DNA from: a virus
Lineage: Duplodnaviria; Caudoviricetes
Reading direction: 5' to 3' (one strand)
Virus record (IMG/VR): IMGVR_UViG_3300037783_000023
Coordinates: 1 to 56,706 of that record
DNA: 56,706 nucleotides
This document shows, piece by piece, positions 2,252 through 55,212 of the stretch; positions within the stretch are counted from its first letter, which is position 1; the number at the start of each line of letters is the position of its first letter. The position numbers and the translations under genes are program-made. The notes below the pieces were generated by a model, which worked only from the letters and a program-made list of their open reading frames with translations, ran no database searches and was not told the origin of the DNA.

Positions 2252-3586
2252 CTATCTGTCCGGGGAAAAGAACCGGGCGATGCCGGTGTTGATCCGCGTG
2301 CCGCTTTCCGCGAAGGCGCCGACCGGCAGGTCCTCCCAAAAGTCGTGCCCCCACCGACCGGGCTCGACATATCCGTGATCTGTCACCGCTGTGATTGGGA
2401 GGATGGCGTAGAGCACGCCCCCGGGCTTGAGGAACCGCCGGGCGTGCTCGACGTGCTTCTGATAGTGCTGACCGTAGAACGGGGGGTTCATGAGGACCAT
2501 GTCGAATTCGGGCTGCGGCGGGACCTCAAGGAAATTGCGGCGCAGCACACCGAAGCCTTCGGCCTTTGCCTGCTCTGCACGGTCCGGGTGGATTTCGTAG
2601 CCTGCGGCCATGATCCCGCTGATGCGATTGTCGGTGGCGTGCCTGCGGATCGCGGCAAGGATGGACCCGTCGCCGCAGGAGGGTTCGAGGATCTTCATCC
2701 CTTCGCGCGGCCATGCCTTCTCGACCAGCCGGTCCGCGATGGTGTCCGGCGTCCGGTAGAATTGCAGGTCGCGCGCCACCTCGGTCCCGGGCTGGCGCTG
2801 AGCTTCCTCGTCCGGTGTATCGGGCAGCACCTCCCCATAGTATTCGGCGAGCCCCCGGTTCACGACGTCGAGCGCGTGCCGGTCAAAAAACAGGTGCGCA
2901 TTCCCGTTCTGGAATACGCGCAGCTTGCCGCCCCACCACATCGCCTCGCCAGCCTTGCGCGCCTCTTGCGCAAGCTCGCTTATGTCCCCATCGCGGACGT
3001 GTGGCTTGCCATCGAGCGACGACATTGCGTTCAGCATGTCCTTGAGCCGCTCTTGCCCCCAAGAGCCGAATGAATACTCACCAAAGCCGGACAGGATTAT
3101 GCGCTTGGGAAGGGCGCTTACTCCGATCTTGACCTTGCTGTGAGACTTGAACGCCGGGTCAAGCTGGCTGAACACCTCGGCCAGACCCCTGAGGACGTGT
3201 TCGCGCGGGTCCAGCAGATAGCGGCCGAAATTAGCCCTGATATTGTCGATGGTAAACTCCGGCGGGTTTTCCAGCTCGCGGTCATAGCGCGCCCGGTCGC
3301 TGGCCGGGGCAATGCGCCCGATGTTGAGCCCGTCGTAGACGTGCCGCCACGCAGAGCGCAGCAGGGCGGCTTCAAGGTCGCGTTGCGTGACGTGCGATGG
3401 GCTGCCGGTTCGGCCCCATATCGAATGGGTGTAGGTGCCCCCGATGGTGGCGCCGAGCTCGATGGCGGTCTGCGCAGCCTTAAGCTCTGCCATCCGCTCG
3501 GGGATAGCCTCGCGCTTGCTTTCATACTCCTCGACCAGCGCGGAAAGCGAGCGCAGGGGTGCGGGCATGTTTGATTGATCTGTCAT
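2252..3586 (-). CDS. DUF4942-like domain fused to an amino (N6-adenine/N4-cytosine) DNA methyltransferase
   Basis: QFYRTP, ILEPSCGDG (SAM-binding) and MNPPF (catalytic) motifs; N-terminal region ending FQNGNAHL resembles DUF4942. Confidence 0.8.
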   Translation of the reverse strand: MTDQSNMPAPLRSLSALVEEYESKREAIPERMAELKAAQTAIELGATIGGTYTHSIWGRTGSPSHVTQRDLEAALLRSAWRHVYDGLNIGRIAPASDRARYDRELENPPEFTIDNIRANFGRYLLDPREHVLRGLAEVFSQLDPAFKSHSKVKIGVSALPKRIILSGFGEYSFGSWGQERLKDMLNAMSSLDGKPHVRDGDISELAQEARKAGEAMWWGGKLRVFQNGNAHLFFDRHALDVVNRGLAEYYGEVLPDTPDEEAQRQPGTEVARDLQFYRTPDTIADRLVEKAWPREGMKILEPSCGDGSILAAIRRHATDNRISGIMAAGYEIHPDRAEQAKAEGFGVLRRNFLEVPPQPEFDMVLMNPPFYGQHYQKHVEHARRFLKPGGVLYAILPITAVTDHGYVEPGRWGHDFWEDLPVGAFAESGTRINTGIARFFSPDR

Positions 3587-11112: not shown

Positions 11113-11693
11113 GTCGTCTCTCCTTTCGCGCGGGCAATGGCGGCAATGGCGGCCGCCATTGCCAGCAACATCGGTTCCATAGAGTGGAGGCGGAAATCGT
11201 CGTGCTCTTTTGACAGGCGGACAGCTCGTCTTGCGACTGCGACCAGTTCCTCGAGCGCTTCGAGCAGATTTGGCGCGGCAGCGTCCGGCTCCTTGACCAG
11301 CTCCATCGTCCGCGGGAATACGGCTGCCAGCATCCTCCGCTTCTCGTCGTCCGTGAGCAGCTTGCTCGCGAGCAGCGAGTTCATCGTTTTGGGGTCAACA
11401 TACTCCGGCGCGACCAGAGGGGTCGTCACCGCCGGGGGGCCGTTTCTGGGGGTTTCGGCAGTCGGAAACGCGAAAACGACCTTGAATTTCCCATCGCCAA
11501 CAATCTCTGCACGGGGCTTGCCCGTGAAATGAGCGAGCCGGGCCGCGACTTTGACGTCTGGGTGATCCATGCAGGCGCGACGGACAAAGTCCGCCCTTTC
11601 GTCCGCCAGAGCCTTCTCGCGGTCTGAGATACTTTTGAATTCGGCCTTTTGATCGTCCGTCATGCGGATGAAGATCTCGATTTGGTGCGTCAT
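11109..11693 (-). CDS. Hypothetical protein with C-terminal AAAPxLLEAL phage motif
   Basis: AGGAG RBS; ATGA overlaps. Confidence 0.6.
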   Translation of the reverse strand: MTHQIEIFIRMTDDQKAEFKSISDREKALADERADFVRRACMDHPDVKVAARLAHFTGKPRAEIVGDGKFKVVFAFPTAETPRNGPPAVTTPLVAPEYVDPKTMNSLLASKLLTDDEKRRMLAAVFPRTMELVKEPDAAAPNLLEALEELVAVARRAVRLSKEHDDFRLHSMEPMLLAMAAAIAAIARAKGETT

Positions 11694-12103
11694 GCCTGTG
11701 CTCCTTTCTGCCGAGCCGCGAGCAGCGCGTCGGCGTATTGATAAGCATTGGTTGCCATATCCTCCGGGGTCGGGAGGCCTGCGTCCGGAGTGGCCCAAGC
11801 GCCGGCGACGATCCCGACCAGCACCCGGATCGCGATTTCATCGCGCAGCTCGGCGTCGTCGAGCGATGGCGGCTCGGATTGGCGCGGGCGGTCGGCGTGG
11901 GTCTCCGCCAGCTCGCGCAGCACCCGGTTCTGTGCCTCGGCAATCTCGCGCCACGTCTTGCCGCCCGCATTGCGCAGCGCGCGGACGTCGCCCTCGCGGA
12001 CGTCCAGCAGCTCTGCGGCCGAGGTCACGCCGAGCTGTCGCAGGGCAGCCATTGCTCGGATTGAGAGCTCAAGGTCGTCGGGCCACTTTTCAATTTTACT
12101 CAT
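11690..12103 (-). CDS. RNA polymerase alpha-CTD-like domain fused to an RD.xA...AY..ADA.. module
   Basis: DDLELSIRAMAALRQLGV...LRNAGGKTWREI aligns by eye with RpoA CTD (DDLELTVRSANCL...PNLGKKSLTEI); TCCACGGAGA RBS. Confidence 0.75.
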   Translation of the reverse strand: MSKIEKWPDDLELSIRAMAALRQLGVTSAAELLDVREGDVRALRNAGGKTWREIAEAQNRVLRELAETHADRPRQSEPPSLDDAELRDEIAIRVLVGIVAGAWATPDAGLPTPEDMATNAYQYADALLAARQKGAQA

Positions 12104-12165
12104 GTATCGTCTCCGTGGATTGGTGCGGGGCCGGAGCCCCGCGATTTCGTTCAGCTCGGGTGAGC

Positions 12166-12468
12166 TCAGTTCGTGCCGGCCTTCGCCCGGTAGCAGCCGG
12201 TCTCCCAAATCGCTCGATAGTCCTCGACTTCGCGCGCCTGATATTCCTCGGACGTGAAGCGGGGCCGCTCGTAGGCCATCAGCAGCATTTGGACGTAGCG
12301 CTCGCCGCGCGCTGCCATGTCGGGCATCAGCGTAGAGATTGCGGTTCCGGCCTGCCGCGCGACCATCACGGCTGCGGCGTCGTCACCGGCCTCGCGGCAC
12401 TCGTCTGCGGTGGCCGCGGTGCTGGCTGCGAGGGTCAGAACGGTGGCAATTGCGAACATCGTTTTCAT
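12166..12468 (-). CDS. Small secreted protein
   Basis: MKTMFAIATVLTLAASTAATA signal peptide; two Cys; AAGGA RBS. Confidence 0.7.
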   Translation of the reverse strand: MKTMFAIATVLTLAASTAATADECREAGDDAAAVMVARQAGTAISTLMPDMAARGERYVQMLLMAYERPRFTSEEYQAREVEDYRAIWETGCYRAKAGTN

Positions 12469-13975: not shown

Positions 13976-14212
13976 CTATTCGTCTCCCTGCGCTGTCGGT
14001 GTGGGGGTCGGGTGAACCAGCTCCATTGCGCGAGCGCGGCCCCTCATGCGGCGGATGGCCCCTCGCTCCTCCAGCTGCAGCAGGATGCGGTGGACGCCGG
14101 ATTTGCCCATGTTCAGCGCGTCGGCAATCTCGTCGAGCGATGGGGCGTACTCGTGTTTTTTGATGTAGCCCGCGATAAAATCGCGGGCCTCCATTTGCCG
14201 GGGCGTCAGCAT
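13976..14212 (-). CDS. Stand-alone LexA N-terminal DNA-binding domain (no peptidase domain)
   Basis: MLTPRQ...PSLDEIADALN..KSGVHRIL..LEERGAIRR...RARAMELV resembles alphaproteobacterial LexA N-terminus; 78 aa; TGATG overlap with recT. Confidence 0.85.
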   Translation of the reverse strand: MLTPRQMEARDFIAGYIKKHEYAPSLDEIADALNMGKSGVHRILLQLEERGAIRRMRGRARAMELVHPTPTPTAQGDE

Positions 14213-16180: not shown

Positions 16181-16561
16181 TTAGGGTCGGATTTGATCGG
16201 CGCGCAGCCGGATCGGGGCGTGGGTCGCCGCCATTTCGGGATGGCGACGCTGTAGGTCTTTAAGTTCGAGGTATTCAGCCCGACTGATCGGGCGCTTGCA
16301 GACGGAGAGCCACGCCCGGCGGGGGTCGCGCGGCTCGCCGTTGATTTCGCAGACCATGCGCTCGTCGCAGGTCAGCTCCCCGTGCTCGTCCACCTCGCGG
16401 ACGATTGAGATTGAGGCGGGGACGAACGGGCCGCCTTTGACGAGCCGGGTTTTATACCAGCCGCAATGGGGCTCCCCCTCGTGGATGGGGACTGGCGCCC
16501 CGGCCAGCGCAGCACGATGCCACGCATACAGCCGGGAAACGGGGGTCGGCTGGCGGATCAT
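16181..16561 (-). CDS. Hypothetical protein
   Basis: GWYKTRLVKGGPFVP motif; coupled. Confidence 0.65.
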   Translation of the reverse strand: MIRQPTPVSRLYAWHRAALAGAPVPIHEGEPHCGWYKTRLVKGGPFVPASISIVREVDEHGELTCDERMVCEINGEPRDPRRAWLSVCKRPISRAEYLELKDLQRRHPEMAATHAPIRLRADQIRP

Positions 16562-16872
16562 TTTCCGCCCCCCTCAGCCGCGATCATGGCGTCGGCGACA
16601 GCGTAGCAGCCCTGAGCAAGCCTCTCCGGGGTCAGCTGATTTTCCGGGTGCGCGCTCAGAAGTGCTTGCATCGCCAATTCCGCAAGACGCTTGCGCTCCG
16701 CGGCCTTGCCGTTCTGCCGGGTCAATTCGCCTGAAAGGTAGAGCTTAAGCGCGTGGTTGATCTCAGTGCTCATCGACCGGCTGTTCTGATCGGCCGAAGC
16801 CGCCACCCGCTCCTTGAGCTCGGGCGCCATTCGCAGCCCATAGGGCGCGACCTGTTTGCTCTCCGCGCTCAT
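16558..16872 (-). CDS. Arc-family ribbon-helix-helix protein + C-terminal shared module
   Basis: YGLRMAPELKERV...NSRSMSTEI; C-term CYAVADAMIA. Confidence 0.8.
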   Translation of the reverse strand: MSAESKQVAPYGLRMAPELKERVAASADQNSRSMSTEINHALKLYLSGELTRQNGKAAERKRLAELAMQALLSAHPENQLTPERLAQGCYAVADAMIAAEGGGK

Positions 16873-17459
16873 GGCTTGCGCTCCCTTTCGGCCATCATCG
16901 CGTCGGCGATCAGGTAGGCTTTGCGCGCGACGAGGGTGTCTTGCGCGCAGAGGTCCGCAAGGCCTACGAGCGCGGCCTCGGCGAAGCGGTCGCGCATGTC
17001 TGCTGCAGGAGCGTTGTTGTAGTGGGCGTCCAAAGCCTCGCAGATTTCTGCGTTGACGGACTTCTCTCCCGACGCCGCAGATACCTGCTCATAAAGCGCC
17101 TGCGGGACGCGGATCGTGTAGCGCGTGTATTCCTGCTGGCGCGCCGATTGACCGCCAAGGTGCGCCTGCAATGCGAGAACGATCTCCCCGTTCATCGTTC
17201 TGTTCGCCTCAGATGCTTTTGACTTAACTCCATCCCGCAGGTCGTGCGGGATGCGAATGCGAAGCTCTGCGTCTCCACGCGCCATGTGGTCGTCTCCCTG
17301 AATTTCGTGATTGATCGCCGCGCTCAAGATTTGAACGATCTCGGCGTTCATTGAGCGGCCCGCTTTGCGGGCCCGCTTTTTGATCTCGTCGCGCATCCCG
17401 CCCGGAAGGCGGACCATCATTTTGGGCAAATGCCGTGATGGGCTGTCTTGAACGCTCAT
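16869..17459 (-). CDS. Triple Arc-domain protein + C-terminal shared module
   Basis: MVRLP...RSMNAEI; LRIRIP...RTMNGEI; YTIRVP...KSVNAEI; then MRDRFA...AYLIADAMM. Confidence 0.8.
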   Translation of the reverse strand: MSVQDSPSRHLPKMMVRLPGGMRDEIKKRARKAGRSMNAEIVQILSAAINHEIQGDDHMARGDAELRIRIPHDLRDGVKSKASEANRTMNGEIVLALQAHLGGQSARQQEYTRYTIRVPQALYEQVSAASGEKSVNAEICEALDAHYNNAPAADMRDRFAEAALVGLADLCAQDTLVARKAYLIADAMMAERERKP

Positions 17460-18580
17460 ACAGACACCAGATCGAGCAGCTTGCCGCCCTTGCGCTCGAG
17501 TGCGACCCGGGCGTCCTGATGCTCGATGCTCTTTGCGTGGGCTGTGACGCCGGTCACCGCGTCCCACACGGTCTCAATTGGGCGGCTCTCCTCCCGCTCA
17601 TGCGCCGCCTTGATCGCGGTCGCCTCCGGCCGCGTGAAACGCTTAAGCAAAAAGGCGTCGAGGTCGTCGTCCACCCGCTTCTGCTGCGCCTCCCGGATGG
17701 TCTGCTCGATGGGCGCGGCGCTGGCGGCTGAATACTCCATCAGCACCGGGCTGATTTCCTCCAGCCAGCGGTCAGGAGCCGATGCGGTGTGGCGGAGCCT
17801 GATTTCCTTGAAGCCCTCGGCTCCCCACACGATGCGGTTTGAGCAGGCGTAGTCGAACAAGAAAAAGGCGGCCCCGATGGACTGGCTGCCGACCTCGCTG
17901 TTCCAGACAAAGAAACCGCGAGCCAGCGAGCCGGAGCGCCCGTTCCGGCGGTTCGGCATCTCGACCCGGTTCACCTCGTCGGCCAAGAACACGAAGATGT
18001 CACGATCTGATCCATAAATGGTGGTGTTCGCCTTGGTGATCGGCACGGCCTGTCCGAATTCGCCCGGCACCCGGAAGTCGCCGGTGCGGCCGTCACCGAA
18101 TTTGTCCGTAAGGGCGGTCACGATTTCCTCGTTCCACACCCTGCCGTAACGAGGCCCTGTCGCGGCGCGCAGTTCGTTGTGCGCAATAAGCTCGCCGCCC
18201 ATTGCGACCGGCTCGTTCTCGGTCCGCAGCAGCCCGACCTCCTCAGCGTCGCGATGGAACCGCAGGCAATAATTGAGGGCGTCGGCCGCAATCGGCGCAG
18301 GCAGTTTGCGCAGCTCGCGCGCCGAGAACCCTGCGAGCGAGGCGAGCTGGCCGAATGACCAGTGCGTCGGGTCGACGATCGTCCCCTCGTTATCGATTGT
18401 GAGGCCCCACTTGGGGTCTGCCGGGTGCGGCTGGACCTCAATGCGGCGGGTGGTCGTCACCGAGGCGACGGAGCGTTCGCGCTGCCCGGCGACCGCGTCG
18501 CGCAGGTCGGTCAGGCTCAAGAACCGCTCGTCGGCCGGGCGCGAGGCCCACTGGCGGGATGCGTGCATAAGTGTCGTCAT
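17456..18580 (-). CDS. DUF932-family protein
   Basis: QWASRPADERFLSL...THWSFGQL...GFFVWNSEVG...CSNRIVWG. Confidence 0.75.
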   Translation of the reverse strand: MTTLMHASRQWASRPADERFLSLTDLRDAVAGQRERSVASVTTTRRIEVQPHPADPKWGLTIDNEGTIVDPTHWSFGQLASLAGFSARELRKLPAPIAADALNYCLRFHRDAEEVGLLRTENEPVAMGGELIAHNELRAATGPRYGRVWNEEIVTALTDKFGDGRTGDFRVPGEFGQAVPITKANTTIYGSDRDIFVFLADEVNRVEMPNRRNGRSGSLARGFFVWNSEVGSQSIGAAFFLFDYACSNRIVWGAEGFKEIRLRHTASAPDRWLEEISPVLMEYSAASAAPIEQTIREAQQKRVDDDLDAFLLKRFTRPEATAIKAAHEREESRPIETVWDAVTGVTAHAKSIEHQDARVALERKGGKLLDLVSV

Positions 18581-18610
18581 GTTCGTGTCTCCGTGGATTT
18601 GGGGGTGGGC

Positions 18611-18748
18611 TCAGTTCAGGCCGAGCCCGTGGCCGATCAGCAGGGCCAGCCAGCCCGTGCCGAAAATCGAAAGCGCGCCGATCAGGTCGCCGAGCAGCTC
18701 GGCGTAGCGGCCGCGCTGAGAGTGGGGGGTGGTCGGTTTGTGTTCCAT
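18611..18748 (-). CDS. Small membrane protein, first gene of PL operon
   Basis: GGAGG RBS; single hydrophobic helix. Confidence 0.6.
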   Translation of the reverse strand: MEHKPTTPHSQRGRYAELLGDLIGALSIFGTGWLALLIGHGLGLN

Positions 18749-18750
18749 AC

Positions 18751-18765
18751 GTTCCTCCGTTGTTC
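18751..18765. promoter_or_regulatory. Alphaproteobacterial LexA (SOS) box over PL start region/RBS
   Basis: GTTC-CTCCGTT-GTTC, exact GTTC-N7-GTTC. Confidence 0.65.
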
Positions 18766-18769
18766 GCGG

Positions 18770-18820
18770 AACATAACCAACAATTTGTGGATCAGACAAG
18801 CGAAAAAACACAAATTGTTG
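18770..18820 (-). promoter_or_regulatory. PL-like promoter with two repressor operators
   Basis: TTGTCT (18794-99)-N18-TATGTT (18770-75); operators CAACAATTTGTGG (18778-90) and ACACAAATTGTTG (18808-20). Confidence 0.7.
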
Positions 18821-18856
18821 AAATTAAATTTTGAGGCTGGACACAGATCTAGACTT

Positions 18857-18871
18857 GTTCTTAATTCGTTC
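18857..18871 (+). promoter_or_regulatory. LexA (SOS) box immediately upstream of ORF 18874
   Basis: GTTC-TTAATTC-GTTC, overlapping a -10-like TTAATT 17 bp after TGGACA (18838-43). Confidence 0.75.
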
Positions 18872-18873
18872 TC

Positions 18874-19065
18874 ATGTGCAGGACTTACAACGACACAGAG
18901 CTAGACCGTCGCCTCGATCGCATGATTGAGGTGGCAACCGAGCTCGGGTGTCCGCTGGACCATGTCGTCGAGCACATGGGGCGGTGCGATCAAAGTGATT
19001 TTCGGAGGTTCTCCGGTAGCCCGTCGCTTCTGCCCCGGTACACGAAGTCAAGCGTGACGCCGTAA
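18874..19065 (+). CDS. Small SOS-regulated protein, candidate antirepressor
   Basis: ATG 2 bp after LexA box; likely leaderless; 3' end overlaps the repressor gene convergently. Confidence 0.55.
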   Translation: MCRTYNDTELDRRLDRMIEVATELGCPLDHVVEHMGRCDQSDFRRFSGSPSLLPRYTKSSVTP

Positions 19066-19247
19066 CGAGCGCAAAGCTCTATCGCTGCCTCCACCGGGAT
19101 GCGGCGAAACCCGCGTTCCCAGTTATTATATTGAGCCAAGTTAAAGCGGTTCTTGAGCGCCCAATCTTTTTGATTGAGGTCCGAAAAGGCCCTGCGGATG
19201 CGTACCAGACGCTGCCCGATCTCATGGTGTTCAAACGTGTCACTCAT
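18990..19247 (-). CDS. Prophage repressor, HTH_XRE only (85 aa)
   Basis: IGQRLVRIR...NQKDWA...YNNWERG...YGVTLDFVY; divergent from cro; no S24 autopeptidase. Confidence 0.85.
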   Translation of the reverse strand: MSDTFEHHEIGQRLVRIRRAFSDLNQKDWALKNRFNLAQYNNWERGFRRIPVEAAIELCARYGVTLDFVYRGRSDGLPENLRKSL

Positions 19248-19531
19248 GGTCGAGTGATCCACGAAATGTGAACCGCCAAGCAAGCAACCACTTGTGGGCT
19301 TGCATTTTCCCACAATTTGTTGATTTTGAGGGGATGCAGACAGCTAAAGAAATCTCCGCCCGCTTCGGGCAAAGAACCATCGCCGCAACGCTGGGCGTCA
19401 GCGTCGGGGCGGTCAGCAACGCCGTTGTCCGGGGTCAGTTCCCGGCGAGCTGGTACGTCGCAATTCAAAGCCTGTGCAACCGTGACGGCGAGCTCTGTCC
19501 CGTCGAGGCATTCGCTTTCAAACCTATTCAT
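19244..19531 (-). CDS. Possible antisense ORF (95 aa) opposite cro, stop overlapping repressor start
   Basis: GGAGGAGG-N7-ATG within hairpin+TCCACGGAG element; TGA overlaps repressor ATG (ATGA). Confidence 0.35.
   Translation of the reverse strand: MNRFESECLDGTELAVTVAQALNCDVPARRELTPDNGVADRPDADAQRCGDGSLPEAGGDFFSCLHPLKINKLWENASPQVVACLAVHISWITRP
19259..19330 (+). promoter_or_regulatory. OR/PR-like region with operator repeats
   Basis: CCACAATTTGTTG (19310-22), CAACCACTTGTGG (19285-97), degenerate CCACGAAATGTGA (19259-71); TTGCAT -35 at 19300-05. Confidence 0.7.
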
Positions 19532-26051: not shown

Positions 26052-26884
26052 AAGAGCCAAGCAAGCTAAACATTTTGATCGCCTACCCCTATTTCAAAGG
26101 GGCCACAGTCAACACTGTTATTGAGGCGCAAGAGAAAATCCGTCTCGTCGTGGACAGTGGAGCATTCACCGCTTGGAAGGCTGGCAAGCCGATTGAGCTA
26201 GACGACTATTGCAGGTTCCTTGAGGGTCTGCCCGTTGAGCCGTGGCGCTATTTCACGCTCGACGTGATCGGCGACCCCGGCGCGACACTCAAGAATTACG
26301 AGACAATGCTGCGACGTGGGTTCAAGCCCGTGCCGATCTTTACGCGCGGCGAAGACCCGTCCGTCCTTGACGACCTTTACAAGACCTCAGACGTGGTGGG
26401 CGTCGGGGGGCTGGTCGGCACTCAAGGCAACGCTGAGTTCGTTAGCGGGATCATGGCCCACGCGGCCGGCCGACGTGTCCACCTCCTCGGCTTCACTCGC
26501 ATGGCCCATCTTCGGGCCTTTCGGCCGTATATGTGTGACGCCTCCTCTTGGGAGAGCGGTGCGCGTTATGCCTCTTTGCCGCTTTATCTTGGCTCCGGTA
26601 AAATCAAGGTCGTGGGCAAGCAGGATTTCAGGTCTCGCCCTTCCCAAGAAATTTGCCGTGCCATCTGTCGGCTCGGTGTCGATCCGCGATTGCTTGCGAT
26701 GGCTGGCGCTTGGACTGGCGGCTACTCGGTGAGCAGGCGGCTTTGCGCGCTGTCTGGCGTGGCTTTGAGCCGTGATGTGCAGCGCAACTTGGGCACAAAT
26801 TATTTTCTCGCCGTCGCGGCGGATTGCGGATTGCGGCTCTTGATCGAGGCGCATGACTTCTTCACACAAGGACCCCCCCCATGA
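26048..26884 (+). CDS. dpdA: DpdA-like (TGT-fold) deazapurine DNA transglycosylase
   Basis: VDSGAFTAW, LDVIGD, PVPIF, GVGGLV, VHLLG, DASSW motifs; adjacent to que genes. Confidence 0.7.
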   Translation: MKEPSKLNILIAYPYFKGATVNTVIEAQEKIRLVVDSGAFTAWKAGKPIELDDYCRFLEGLPVEPWRYFTLDVIGDPGATLKNYETMLRRGFKPVPIFTRGEDPSVLDDLYKTSDVVGVGGLVGTQGNAEFVSGIMAHAAGRRVHLLGFTRMAHLRAFRPYMCDASSWESGARYASLPLYLGSGKIKVVGKQDFRSRPSQEICRAICRLGVDPRLLAMAGAWTGGYSVSRRLCALSGVALSRDVQRNLGTNYFLAVAADCGLRLLIEAHDFFTQGPPP

Positions 26885-27633
26885 GTAAATCTGCTTTGGT
26901 GGTCCTGTCCGGCGGACAGGACAGCACGACCTGCCTATTTTGGGCGAAACAGAATTTCGACACGGTTCACGCCGTGACCTTCGACTATGCGCAGCGGCAC
27001 AGCCGCGAGATTGAGGCCGCACGCAAGGTCGCGGAGCTGGCCGTCGTGGACAGCCATACGGTCCTAAGCGTGGGGCCGCTGCTCGGTGGCCGCTCCCCCC
27101 TCACCAATGCGGACGAGGAGCTGGAAACCTATAACGACTTCGAGGAGATGGACGCGGTGATCGGCGACCGGGTGGAGCTCACCTTCGTCCCGATGCGGAA
27201 TGCTTTTTTCCTCACGCTCGCCGCGAATGTGGCGGTGGTTCGAGACGTGTTCGACTTGGTGACAGGCGTTTGCCAGCAGGATAACGCCAATTATCCGGAC
27301 TGCCGACAAGGCTTCATCGACGCGCAGGAGGCGACCATCAACGCGGCTCTCGGGATCGATCGCTTCCGCATCCACACGCCGCTGATGGATATGACCAAGG
27401 CCGAGACAGTCCACTTGGCGAAGTCCCTGCCCGGGGCTTATGAGGCGCTGGCGCACTCGCACACGGCGTATTCCGGCGAGTATCCGCCGATCACTCGTGA
27501 CCATGCAACGGTTCTACGCGAGCAAGGGTTTCTTGAGGCCGGTCTTCCTGATCCCCTGATCGTCCGCGCGTGGCGCGAGGGTCTTATGGACCTGCCCCTG
27601 ACTGAAAATTATTCAGAGCTGCGTGAGGCTTAG
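26881..27633 (+). CDS. queC: 7-cyano-7-deazaguanine synthase, variant lacking C-terminal Zn cysteines
   Basis: SGGQDSTTC, FDYAQRH..E, TFVPMRN, YPDCR. Confidence 0.92.
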   Translation: MSKSALVVLSGGQDSTTCLFWAKQNFDTVHAVTFDYAQRHSREIEAARKVAELAVVDSHTVLSVGPLLGGRSPLTNADEELETYNDFEEMDAVIGDRVELTFVPMRNAFFLTLAANVAVVRDVFDLVTGVCQQDNANYPDCRQGFIDAQEATINAALGIDRFRIHTPLMDMTKAETVHLAKSLPGAYEALAHSHTAYSGEYPPITRDHATVLREQGFLEAGLPDPLIVRAWREGLMDLPLTENYSELREA

Positions 27634-27726
27634 CCGTTGCTCGGCTGGCCTTGGCTCTTGGTGGACGCCGCACAGCAACACGCGGCGTCGCCAGATCAAA
27701 ATGACTTCTCGCCCCCGGAAAAACAC

Positions 27727-28404
27727 ATGCCCCGACAAAATCAAATCGACCAGCTAAAGCGACGGCTTGTTGCCAATGGTGCGAGCTATTTTGCAAACGA
27801 CAATATCGCCGACCACCTTGAGCGGGGCGATTTGGACGCCATCGAGGCCGAGGTCGCCGAGCGCATGCGTTCTGTGCTGGACGCTCTCGTGATTGACGTC
27901 GAGGCCGATCATAACACTCAGGACACCGCCCGCCGGGTCGCAAAAATGTTCGTGCGCGAGGTGTTCGCCGGGCGTTATGAGCCTCGCCCGAAAATGACCG
28001 ATTTCCCGAACGCAAAGCAGCTGGACGAAATGTATGTCGTTGGCCCCATCGCGGTTCGTTCGGCTTGCTCACATCACCTGACCCCCATCATGGGCGAGGC
28101 GTTTGTGGGTGTGATCCCGGGGAGCCGGGTGATCGGGTTATCCAAGTTCAACCGGCTGGCCTATTGGATCATGGCCCGTCCTCAAATTCAGGAGGAGGCG
28201 GTGGTCCAGCTGGCGGACGAGCTCGAGGGCATCATCGCCCCGAAGGCGCTCGGCGTCGTGGTCCGGGCACGGCACTTCTGCGGGTGCTGGCGCGGCGTGA
28301 AGGACGACACCCTCATGACCACCTCGGTGATGCGCGGCCTGTTCCGTGACAGCCCACACGCCCGCGCTGAGTTCATGGAATGGGTGAAAGGCAGCTCGAA
28401 ATGA
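27727..28404 (+). CDS. folE: GTP cyclohydrolase I
   Basis: DTARRVAKMF, SACSHH, GLSKFNR, RPQIQE, HFC..WRGV. Confidence 0.92.
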   Translation: MPRQNQIDQLKRRLVANGASYFANDNIADHLERGDLDAIEAEVAERMRSVLDALVIDVEADHNTQDTARRVAKMFVREVFAGRYEPRPKMTDFPNAKQLDEMYVVGPIAVRSACSHHLTPIMGEAFVGVIPGSRVIGLSKFNRLAYWIMARPQIQEEAVVQLADELEGIIAPKALGVVVRARHFCGCWRGVKDDTLMTTSVMRGLFRDSPHARAEFMEWVKGSSK

Positions 28405-28847
28405 AGTTCACATCGACCAAGACATACGGCCACGAAATCGGTCTGTCCGCAGCCTTCCGCCAGTGGAAGGCGGACAGCCATTGCCGGTTTTTGCACGGCT
28501 ACGCGCTCGCCGTGCGCTTTGAGTTCGAGAGCGAGGATCTGGACGCCCGGAATTGGGTCGTGGATTTTGGCTCGCTGAAATCCCTTAAGGCTCGGCTGCA
28601 AGACACTTTCGACCACAAGACGCTCGTCGCCGAGGACGACCCTCACATGGCTTGGTTCGAGGAGGCCCATCAACGCGGGATCGTTGATCTGGTCAAGGTC
28701 CCAGCCACCGGCTGCGAGCGGTTCGCTGAGATGATTTTCGAGGTGACGGAGCTTTGGCTGATCGACAATGGTTACGCCCCCCGGTGCCGGGTGGCAGCCG
28801 TAGAAGTCCGCGAGCACGGCGCGAACAGCGCAATCGTGAGGGCATGA
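28401..28847 (+). CDS. queD: 6-carboxy-tetrahydropterin synthase
   Basis: HCRFLHGY, WVVDFG..K, FDHK, GCE, VREH..NSA. Confidence 0.9.
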   Translation: MKFTSTKTYGHEIGLSAAFRQWKADSHCRFLHGYALAVRFEFESEDLDARNWVVDFGSLKSLKARLQDTFDHKTLVAEDDPHMAWFEEAHQRGIVDLVKVPATGCERFAEMIFEVTELWLIDNGYAPRCRVAAVEVREHGANSAIVRA

Positions 28848-28848
28848 C

Positions 28849-29511
28849 ATGCTGATCGGAGTGAATGAGGTCTTCGAGACGGTGCAGGGCGAGGCGTTTT
28901 TCACCGGCTCCCCGGCTGTCTTCGTGCGCCTACAAGGGTGCCTTGTCGGGTGCCCGTGGTGCGATACGAAGCACACATGGGCGGTCGACAAGCGGGACGA
29001 GGTCTCGCAGGCGTCGATGATGCAAAAGACCCAAGACGCCCCGACCCATGCGCGAATGGCTCCGTGGCGAGTGGCAAACATGGTCGCGGGGTTCAAATCC
29101 CGTTTGGTCGTGATCACGGGCGGTGAGCCTGCCTTTTGGCCGCTGCGCGAGCTTTGCGAGCAGATACAGTCCAAGGGCAAGGTGGTTCAGATTGAGACCA
29201 GCGGCACGGAGCCAGTCGAGGTGCCGGATGGGGTGTGGGTCACAGTGTCGCCGAAAATTGGGATGCCGGGCGGCAAGGCAATCGTCGGGTCGGCGGTCAG
29301 CCGGGCAAACGAAATCAAGATGCCGGTCGGCAAGCCCGCGGACGTGGACAAGCTGATCGCGTTCATCGACGAGTTCGGGGCCCATGATAAGCTGATTTGG
29401 CTGCAACCGCTCAGTCAAAGCGTCAAGGCGACCGAGCTCTGCCTGAGTGCCGCTCGCGAGCATGGCTGGCGGGTGAGCATCCAGACCCACAAGTTCCTAG
29501 GGGTTCGCTGA
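28849..29511 (+). CDS. queE: 7-carboxy-7-deazaguanine synthase (radical SAM)
   Basis: FETVQGE, CLVGCPWCDTK, ITGGEP, ETSG, TVSPK, QTHK. Confidence 0.93.
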   Translation: MLIGVNEVFETVQGEAFFTGSPAVFVRLQGCLVGCPWCDTKHTWAVDKRDEVSQASMMQKTQDAPTHARMAPWRVANMVAGFKSRLVVITGGEPAFWPLRELCEQIQSKGKVVQIETSGTEPVEVPDGVWVTVSPKIGMPGGKAIVGSAVSRANEIKMPVGKPADVDKLIAFIDEFGAHDKLIWLQPLSQSVKATELCLSAAREHGWRVSIQTHKFLGVR

Positions 29512-54988: not shown

Positions 54989-55212
54989 CAGACACGGCAG
55001 AGCGCGTGACCATCGAGGGCGATGGCCTGACGGTCTCGCTTATCGTTTGGCGACGGTTCCGGCAGCCTATGCCGGGGCTCGTCGAACAGATTTACCGGCT
55101 GAACCCCGGTCTGGCGGACCTTGGGGAGACGCTGCCGGTCGGCACGTCGTTCCTGCTGCCGATCCCGGCGGTCGAGCCTGAGCAGGCATTGGAGCCCATC
55201 CGGCTCTGGTAA
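54985..55212 (+). CDS. Tail protein X (P2 gpX/LysM-like)
   Basis: LNPGLADLG..LPVGT..LP...RLW. Confidence 0.85.
   Translation: MTDTAERVTIEGDGLTVSLIVWRRFRQPMPGLVEQIYRLNPGLADLGETLPVGTSFLLPIPAVEPEQALEPIRLW

Follow-up and report, generated by a model that had tools for sequence, protein, structure and literature searches.

A conserved small gene with a LexA-type box, convergent on an uncleavable repressor gene in a lambda-like phage, is a candidate anti-repressor gene

The DNA analysed here (the window) is the IMG/VR record IMGVR_UViG_3300037783_000023, which was assembled from pond metagenomes and whose 56,706 bases, with direct terminal repeats and an estimated completeness of 100%, represent a whole virus genome. 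By its layout, the window is a temperate lambda-like phage with a lambda-style immunity region. In this region, an open reading frame (ORF) of 63 amino acids starts 2 nt after an exact LexA-type box and is convergent with the gene of an 85-residue repressor, the 2 genes overlapping by 76 nt at their 3′ ends. The ORF is a real, conserved protein gene, and its product is probably an anti-repressor of a new kind, through which DNA damage would induce the phage. The 4 features on which this reading is built are as follows.

18874–19065, plus strand: candidate LexA-controlled anti-repressor gene (the small gene), 63 amino acids, with homologues and coding-type substitutions
18857–18871, plus strand: box 2, exact GTTC-N7-GTTC found by motif search, GTTCTTAATTCGTTC, lying over the predicted −10 element of the small gene
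18751–18765, plus strand: box 1, exact GTTC-N7-GTTC found by motif search, GTTCCTCCGTTGTTC
18990–19247, minus strand: helix-turn-helix (HTH) repressor, probably of the Xre type, 85 amino acids, without a cleavage domain

The arrangement proposed in the original prediction, an ORF 2 bp after a box that converges on and overlaps the 3′ end of the repressor gene, proved to be a conserved one. The small protein has 58 homologues at E ≤ 1e-3, most of them 57–63 residues long, and its family accounts for 53 clusters among 1.84 billion representatives. The homologues share the core DRRLDRMIE-A--L---LDHVV-HMGRC, with 12 invariant residues in an alignment of 29 sequences, and distant members keep the N-terminal core RLD-MI--A----G--LD-VV even where the C-terminus differs. 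The substitutions are those of a protein-coding gene: over the 26 codons outside the overlap in 25 sequences, the pairwise differences at codon positions 1, 2, and 3 were 0.25, 0.11, and 0.58, respectively, and outside the overlap the ORF frame had 3315 synonymous versus 1873 non-synonymous codon differences. The next best frame had 2235 synonymous versus 2891 non-synonymous differences, and all other frames were poorer than that of the ORF.

The small gene is encoded in 7 IMG/VR and 20 genome records. Of the 20 genome records, 18 bear names in the Rhodobacteraceae or Rhodobacterales, which suggests a Rhodobacteraceae-type host for the phage of the window; the other 2 are an unclassified Pseudomonadota metagenome-assembled genome (MAG) and a weak match in a Hyphomicrobiales MAG (L028, 50% identity over 26 residues, E 6e-4), the latter of which was excluded from all counts. 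The comparison comprises 28 rows, including 3 duplicate pairs, and hence 25 distinct loci; L015, for which an ORF in the wrong frame had been selected as the repressor, was excluded from the repressor alignment. A convergent repressor homologue overlaps the small gene in all 28 rows, and the overlap measures exactly 76 nt in 24 of them (52 nt in L016, 79 nt in L020, and 61 nt in L027). EBPR podovirus 2 (JF412295) is the sole carrier among 50,697 deposited phages. Its gp64, annotated as “hypothetical”, converges on gp65, a “putative transcriptional regulator”, and both are true homologues of the window pair (the small proteins are 72% identical and the repressors 61%) with the same convergent 76-nt overlap. 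The podovirus differs from the window in having no GTTC-N7-GTTC within 170 nt upstream of gp64, and a search of this upstream region for CTGT-N8-ACAG, the gamma- and betaproteobacterial type of LexA box, found just a loose and unconvincing CTG-N10-CAG. A relative from a marsh metagenome follows the window as far as 18850 and resumes the match at 19159, with 309 unlike letters in place of 18851–19158; this segment appears to be an allele of the small gene and the C-terminal part of the repressor that was swapped in or has diverged strongly.

The fixed overlap and the coding signal bear in opposite directions on an explanation in which the main effector would be RNA, with an SOS-released transcript lowering repressor synthesis by interference or by antisense pairing over at least 76 nt. 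The convergent 76-nt overlap in 24 of 28 rows and the LexA box at the small-gene promoter would suit such a role, and there are parallels: convergent-promoter interference operates in coliphage 186, and the OOP RNA of lambda, which is antisense to cII, is reportedly under LexA control. An RNA-only role, however, needs neither the protein-level selection outside the overlap nor the 12 residues invariant in 29 sequences, and stopping new synthesis would leave the stable repressor that is already present. Terminator-like hairpins were also within chance (2 found versus 1.2 expected), including the one at 19096–19119. We therefore regard RNA as quite unlikely to be the main effector; an RNA effect could nevertheless act alongside the small protein, and antisense or interference effects of the convergent overlap may add to the action of that protein.

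The number of LexA-type boxes in the window is not significant, whereas their placement is. A motif search returned the 2 repeats that had been described at 18751–18765 and 18857–18871 and a third exact copy (27238–27252) within the QueC gene, which is taken as a chance match. The total of 3 compares with 1.56 expected, and at least 3 boxes occurred in 20 of 100 shuffles. By contrast, 2 boxes lay within 150 nt of each other in 22 of 2000 simulated windows, and, when the 125-nt gap 18749–18873 was shuffled, at least 1 box arose in 512 and at least 2 boxes in 3 of 200,000 trials. Thus, the earlier statement that the paired boxes are unlikely to be random holds for their placement, though not for the window count alone. 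Sites with at most 1 mismatch number 32 in the window, and 4 of the 5 that fall outside gene models are in this same gap. Beside box 2, a GATC repeat at 18846 forms a third in-phase unit with 1 mismatch.

The available part of PMC3323433 describes GTTC-N7-GTTC as the alphaproteobacterial LexA site, and in 5 of 5 host genomes of the related prophages lexA itself is directly preceded by the same box, often in tandem; the assignment of the repeats to the Rhodobacter/Rhizobium LexA box is borne out by both. Box 2 also recurs ahead of the small gene. In a 136-nt window placed 15–150 nt upstream of the conserved RLDRM codons and searched in either orientation (GTTC/GAAC-N7), an exact box was found in 15 of 28 rows, corresponding to 15 of the 25 distinct loci, in both orientations and with unrelated flanks. 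Elsewhere in these loci, 10 boxes in 150,351 nt (5 of them copies of box 1) give a background of 0.009 per window of the same size. The original prediction had made its own standing depend on whether the boxes and the ORF are conserved in related prophages; box 2 and the ORF are, the exact loci being joined by 7 with a single mismatch. Because the box recurs ahead of the gene and matches the host lexA boxes, LexA control of the small gene, which would act through the binding of LexA at these sites, is well supported.

That the boxes are instead chance matches, or by-products of a ribosome-binding site and an AT-rich promoter with LexA uninvolved, is highly improbable. Such an origin would be in keeping with the raw count in the window and with the surroundings of the boxes, box 1 lying over a Shine-Dalgarno sequence and box 2 in a gap of 38% G+C (18749–18873), but it is at odds with the 3 in 200,000 local shuffles that gave 2 boxes and with exact boxes, in both orientations and amid unrelated flanks, at 15 of 25 distinct loci, where the background would predict 0.009 per search window.

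The original prediction took the repressor for an HTH protein without an autopeptidase domain, and this description fits all that was found. Only HTH families were matched: Pfam HTH_3 (PF01381) at E 6.5e-4 and 20.1 bits, under the cut-off of 23, and phrog_8 at 8.8e-6. The nearest solved relative by sequence is the Xre-family regulator of ICEBs1 (7t8i, E 8e-4), and the match to the RstR family model is weak and sub-threshold (E 0.0028, 17.9 bits versus a cut-off of 80). A chain of 85 residues is too short to include a peptidase domain, and the 21 homologues are likewise just 84–96 residues long. The sites at which this repressor would act, and the promoters that they would control, are listed below; operators were recognised by their fit to MACNNNWTGTK and carry no strand, and promoters were read by hand.

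18771–18799, minus strand: predicted early leftward promoter PL, −35 TTGTCT (18794–18799), 17-nt spacer, −10 TTATGT (18771–18776)
18778–18790: operator OL1, CAACAATTTGTGG, within the PL spacer
18808–18820: operator OL2, ACACAAATTGTTG
18838–18866, plus strand: predicted small-gene promoter, −35 TGGACA (18838–18843), 17-nt spacer, −10 TTAATT (18861–18866)
19259–19271, 19285–19297, and 19310–19322: 3 operator-like sites between the repressor gene and the cro-like gene

The 5 operator-like 13-mers, with cores at 18779, 18809, 19260, 19286, and 19311, all lie in the 2 gaps that flank the cassette, and 8 of the 10 matches to MACNNNWTGTK in the window are due to them. Aligned relatives have 2 operators at positions equivalent to those of OL1 and OL2, and the PL −10 element is conserved as TAATGT or TTATGT in L002–L004. 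Upstream of the small gene, a −35-like T[AGT]GACA is aligned in 7 of 7 relatives. The ATG of the small gene stands 7 nt past the predicted −10 element, and the messenger RNA is therefore probably leaderless. Because the operators lie upstream of the small-gene −35 element, the phage repressor need not silence this promoter, whereas LexA would. Among sequencing runs, 2 pond-metagenome DNA runs contain the window in full and may be the source of the record. RNA-library contigs of a relative with 95–99% identity cover 18300–18377 and 18513–18763 only, and one of them ends near the PL start; neither the contig end at 18763 nor the missing coverage of the small gene and the repressor gene was used as evidence, because contigs cannot show a start and the library may contain DNA.

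The anti-repressor role is drawn from 3 properties of the cassette: the repressor is uncleavable, the pairing of the 2 genes is invariable, and the small-gene promoter would be closed by LexA and not by the phage repressor. A structural prediction is consistent with contact between the 2 proteins. The predicted complex of repressor and small protein scored 0.54 (0.54, 0.57, and 0.52 in separate runs), whereas the best of 3 controls scored 0.00; the contacts agreed by 100% between runs, and the partner pLDDT (a per-residue model confidence) was at least 69. When the tool was calibrated, 116 of the 157 solved complexes reached the mark, as did 2 of the 215 mismatched pairs; of these, 18 solved complexes and both mismatches had scores of 0.60 or less; these counts hold roughly here, as our own alignments were used in the prediction. 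The structure prediction suggested at the outset thus set the pair apart from its controls, but at a weak score.

The small protein itself was modelled as 3 helices (residues 7–24, 28–35, and 40–48) followed by a disordered tail. It matched no family in Pfam, PHROG, or NCBIfam, in agreement with the earlier remark that the ORF was not recognised as a known anti-repressor family, and a Pfam scan of 13 distant or longer members of its family returned no domain. Foldseek comparison with the PDB gave a best E of 4, a PDB sequence profile search gave a best E of 0.024 to an unrelated repeat protein, and the ESM Atlas yielded no usable match. By these comparisons, the small-protein family is new and unannotated, and the module otherwise appears to follow known LexA/anti-repressor logic.

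The small protein might be SOS-induced and yet have another target, such as LexA (as for gp7 of the Bacillus thuringiensis phage GIL01), another phage regulator, or a host function such as cell division. LexA control is the sole well-supported property of the small gene, the complex prediction with the repressor is weak, and the phage encodes a truncated LexA resembling GIL01 gp6 (described below), which recalls the gp6/gp7 pair set out in the available part of PMC6182141. The small protein, however, has no similarity to gp7 (hhalign probability 1.5% over 13 columns), and its gene is tied to the repressor gene at every locus, whereas the truncated LexA occurs in 4 of the 16 elements checked. 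Furthermore, a repressor without a cleavage domain requires some inactivator, and the window offers no rival candidate gene with a non-genic LexA box. Another target is thus unlikely in our view.

Box 1 has a narrower distribution than box 2 and occurs together with a LexA-like protein of the phage.

13976–14212, minus strand: truncated LexA, 78 amino acids, DNA-binding domain only (PF01726), in the PL operon between RecT and SSB

Box 1 overlies the Shine-Dalgarno sequence (complement of 18754–18758) of the first leftward gene, whose start is at 18748, and spans approximately +1 to +14 of the transcript expected from the PL promoter as read by hand. It is exact in 4 of the 25 distinct relatives (the window, L002, L003/L009, and L004) and absent from the other 21. 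Among the 4 phages, its 8 core bases are invariant, and 3 of the 7 spacer bases and both flanks vary; in a metagenomic relative, 9 substitutions lie between 18773 and 18809 and none in box 1. The truncated LexA matches PF01726 with 51.1 bits (cut-off 23.7) and lacks the cleavage and dimerisation domain (peptidase S24); its identity is 48% to the N-terminal domain of a host LexA and 39%, over 66 residues, to GIL01 gp6. All 4 distinct phages that have box 1 encode a protein of this kind (77–78 residues), the 3 relatives having close copies of the window's, whereas 0 of the 12 other elements checked do so. As the 4 phages form a single clade, this co-occurrence counts as one event.

The original prediction had induction depend on host LexA cleavage at 2 points, one of them an AND gate at PL. 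The exact box at this position stands, but as a feature of one subgroup (4 of 25 relatives) whose members also encode the truncated LexA, which suggests, at the level of sequence, that box 1 belongs to a circuit with the phage's own LexA-like protein and not just to a host-LexA AND gate. Taken further, box 1 might be mainly the operator of the truncated LexA, providing feedback on the PL operon instead of an AND gate. Box and protein occur together in 4 of 4 phages and are both missing from the other 12 elements checked, and the recognition helix and wing of the relatives' proteins (SKSN[VI]HRL..ALEERG.IRRL) are nearly those of host LexA. This possibility is nonetheless a doubtful one: the co-occurrence is a single event in one clade, binding may be weak for a domain that lacks the part of LexA responsible for dimerisation, host LexA is expected to recognise the same site, and the helix of the window's copy is more diverged than that of its relatives. 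In a scan of the window for boxes outside genes with at most 1 mismatch, none was near the late genes except a one-mismatch site at 55045.

We lean modestly towards a model in which a small anti-repressor gated by host LexA inactivates the uncleavable repressor and thereby opens PL and the rightward promoter PR. In the lysogen, the 85-residue repressor would hold PL and PR shut through the 5 operators, and host LexA would silence the small gene from the box over its −10 element, the small-gene promoter being free of phage operators. After DNA damage, RecA-stimulated self-cleavage of LexA would free this promoter. The small protein would then be made, probably from a leaderless messenger RNA, and would bind and inactivate the repressor, so that PL and PR open. 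In the lineage of the window phage, box 1 at the PL transcript start would put the early-left operon under an additional LexA lock, and the truncated, uncleavable LexA DNA-binding protein of this operon may later re-occupy the boxes.

Several observations weigh against this model or parts of it. (i) Seven further distinct loci have a box with 1 core mismatch; in 5 of these 7 the box reads GTTGCT... and is positionally homologous to box 2 of the window. (ii) No box was found within 170 nt upstream of the small gene in 3 of the 25 distinct loci (EBPR podovirus 2, L021, and L027). (iii) A sigma-70 consensus scan of 18500–19500 reported no promoter, and PL and the small-gene promoter are for this reason given as predictions. 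(iv) Confidence in the small-protein model is moderate (pLDDT 66), and the protein resembles known anti-repressors neither in sequence nor in fold. (v) The complex score of 0.54 falls in a range where the tool errs more often than not, except when the proposed pair was a likely one from the start. (vi) The overlap of box 1 with the ribosome-binding site could constrain its spacer, though not the GTTC cores, and because box 1 is restricted to one clade, neither its conservation nor its co-occurrence with the truncated LexA is phylogenetically independent. (vii) The host of this metagenomic phage was deduced from the relatives.

A side observation concerns L021, a prophage in a Gemmobacter MAG. 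At approximately 800–866 in this locus, a promoter-like TGGACA-N17-CTATAG is followed by an AT-rich near-palindrome, CTATAGAAAAATTTTATAG; the L021 small gene may have been handed to another regulator.

LexA-controlled anti-repressors that act on uncleavable repressors include Tum of coliphage 186 (146 amino acids), GfoA and GfhA of the Salmonella Gifsy phages, Ant of SPC32H, and AntC of N15. The window module shares with them (i) a repressor without a self-cleavage domain, (ii) a separate small gene with a LexA box at its promoter, and (iii) the same predicted logic, here deduced from the layout, in which LexA cleavage leads to the anti-repressor and this to repressor inactivation. It differs from them in that (i) there is no similarity in sequence or fold, and the window protein is far smaller than Tum; (ii) the gene, instead of lying elsewhere in the genome, is fixed beside the repressor gene, in convergent orientation and with a conserved 76-nt coding overlap; and (iii) the box is the alphaproteobacterial direct repeat.

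Two further systems combine LexA with phage regulators. Kimsey and Waldor reportedly placed, in 2009, the CTXphi promoter PrstA under the dual control of RstR and LexA. In the window lineage, PL would likewise be an early promoter bearing operators of the phage repressor plus a LexA box; CTXphi, however, is an unrelated type of phage, and its LexA site is the gammaproteobacterial palindrome. To our knowledge, GIL01 gp6 is the one truncated phage LexA that has been characterised. As in GIL01, LexA boxes lie at phage promoters of the window, and a LexA homologue consisting of the DNA-binding domain only is encoded. GIL01, in contrast, has no dedicated repressor, whereas the window phage has one with 5 operators, and the small protein of the window is unlike gp7. 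According to the available part of PMC6182141, the GIL01 switch is built on host LexA, for which gp7 serves as co-repressor, and the truncated LexA gp6 is the late activator.

The literature within our coverage, which excludes subscription journals, contains no account of the gene pair or of a LexA-controlled anti-repressor in Rhodobacteraceae phages. The terms LexA, SOS, and antirepressor occur 0 times in the text of PMC8224337, and the available part of a roseobacter phage study (PMC7305329) states that the switch proteins are unknown. The phages of the latter study do not carry the small gene, because EBPR podovirus 2 is the only deposited phage that has it.

The other genes considered here belong to 2 operons, one leftward and one rightward. 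The leftward operon encodes a small membrane protein, DUF932, Arc-like proteins, RecT, SSB, and a tyrosine integrase, and the rightward operon contains a cro-like gene, RuvC, a replication protein, a QueC/FolE/QueD/radical-SAM cluster, and the large terminase. Each operon begins with the following gene.

18611–18748, minus strand: first PL gene, a 45-residue protein with one hydrophobic C-terminal helix
19334–19681, plus strand: cro-like HTH gene, the first of the rightward operon, with weak matches to YdaS, CI-HTH, Cro, and phrog_35

The first PL product and its 53-residue counterpart in L002 (2711–2872, minus strand) have in common the C-terminal motif SIFGTG-L-LLIGHGLGLN and a variable N-terminus. 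Because its ribosome-binding site is overlain by a LexA box, the gene bears a likeness to those of SOS-induced small membrane proteins. Further along the PL operon, 2 neighbouring genes (16869–17567 and 16558–16872, both minus strand) encode Arc/ribbon-helix-helix proteins, and the larger of the 2 proteins has 2 Arc-like repeats (PF03869, E 3.5e-24). The early-left gene at 11690–12208 (minus strand) encodes an RNA polymerase alpha C-terminal domain (PF03118, E 3e-8), which is unusual in a phage, and a fusion of DUF4942 with an N6-DNA-methyltransferase is encoded at 2252–3586 (minus strand), near the integrase end of the early-left arm. Ahead of the terminase gene, the run at 26881–29511 (plus strand) encodes QueC, GTP cyclohydrolase I, a QueD-like 6-pyruvoyl-tetrahydropterin synthase, and a QueE-like radical-SAM protein, and has the appearance of a 7-deazaguanine DNA-modification module.

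An extended, three-part circuit can also be envisaged, although it is unlikely as a whole: a leaderless anti-repressor gated by LexA and locked in place by the overlap would act together with antisense RNA, a LexA lock would sit on PL, and the uncleavable LexA would re-close the boxes. If this circuit were true, protein and antisense RNA would hit the repressor jointly, and the truncated LexA would possibly re-close the whole SOS regulon of the host while RecA is still active. The anti-repressor would then be made in a self-limiting pulse, and the phage would switch off both the damage response of its host and rival SOS-inducible prophages.

The proposal that a LexA-gated small anti-repressor opens PL and PR bears on many marine and freshwater Rhodobacteraceae prophages, which have short Xre-type repressors without a cleavage domain. 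For one widespread family of these repressors, the unannotated gene of 57–63 residues with its host SOS box provides a testable candidate for the switch, and the predictions are directly testable because a cultured lysogen, Thalassobacter stenotrophicus CECT 5294 (L009), carries a close relative. This relative has box 1, box 2 with 1 mismatch, a small gene of 79% identity, and the truncated LexA. The truncated LexA represents a second gp6-like LexA homologue in phages, a rare group, and comes from a different phylum and phage type. If the anti-repressor reading is true, the small proteins would constitute a new anti-repressor family, small in size and with an unusual fixed antisense overlap with the repressor gene.

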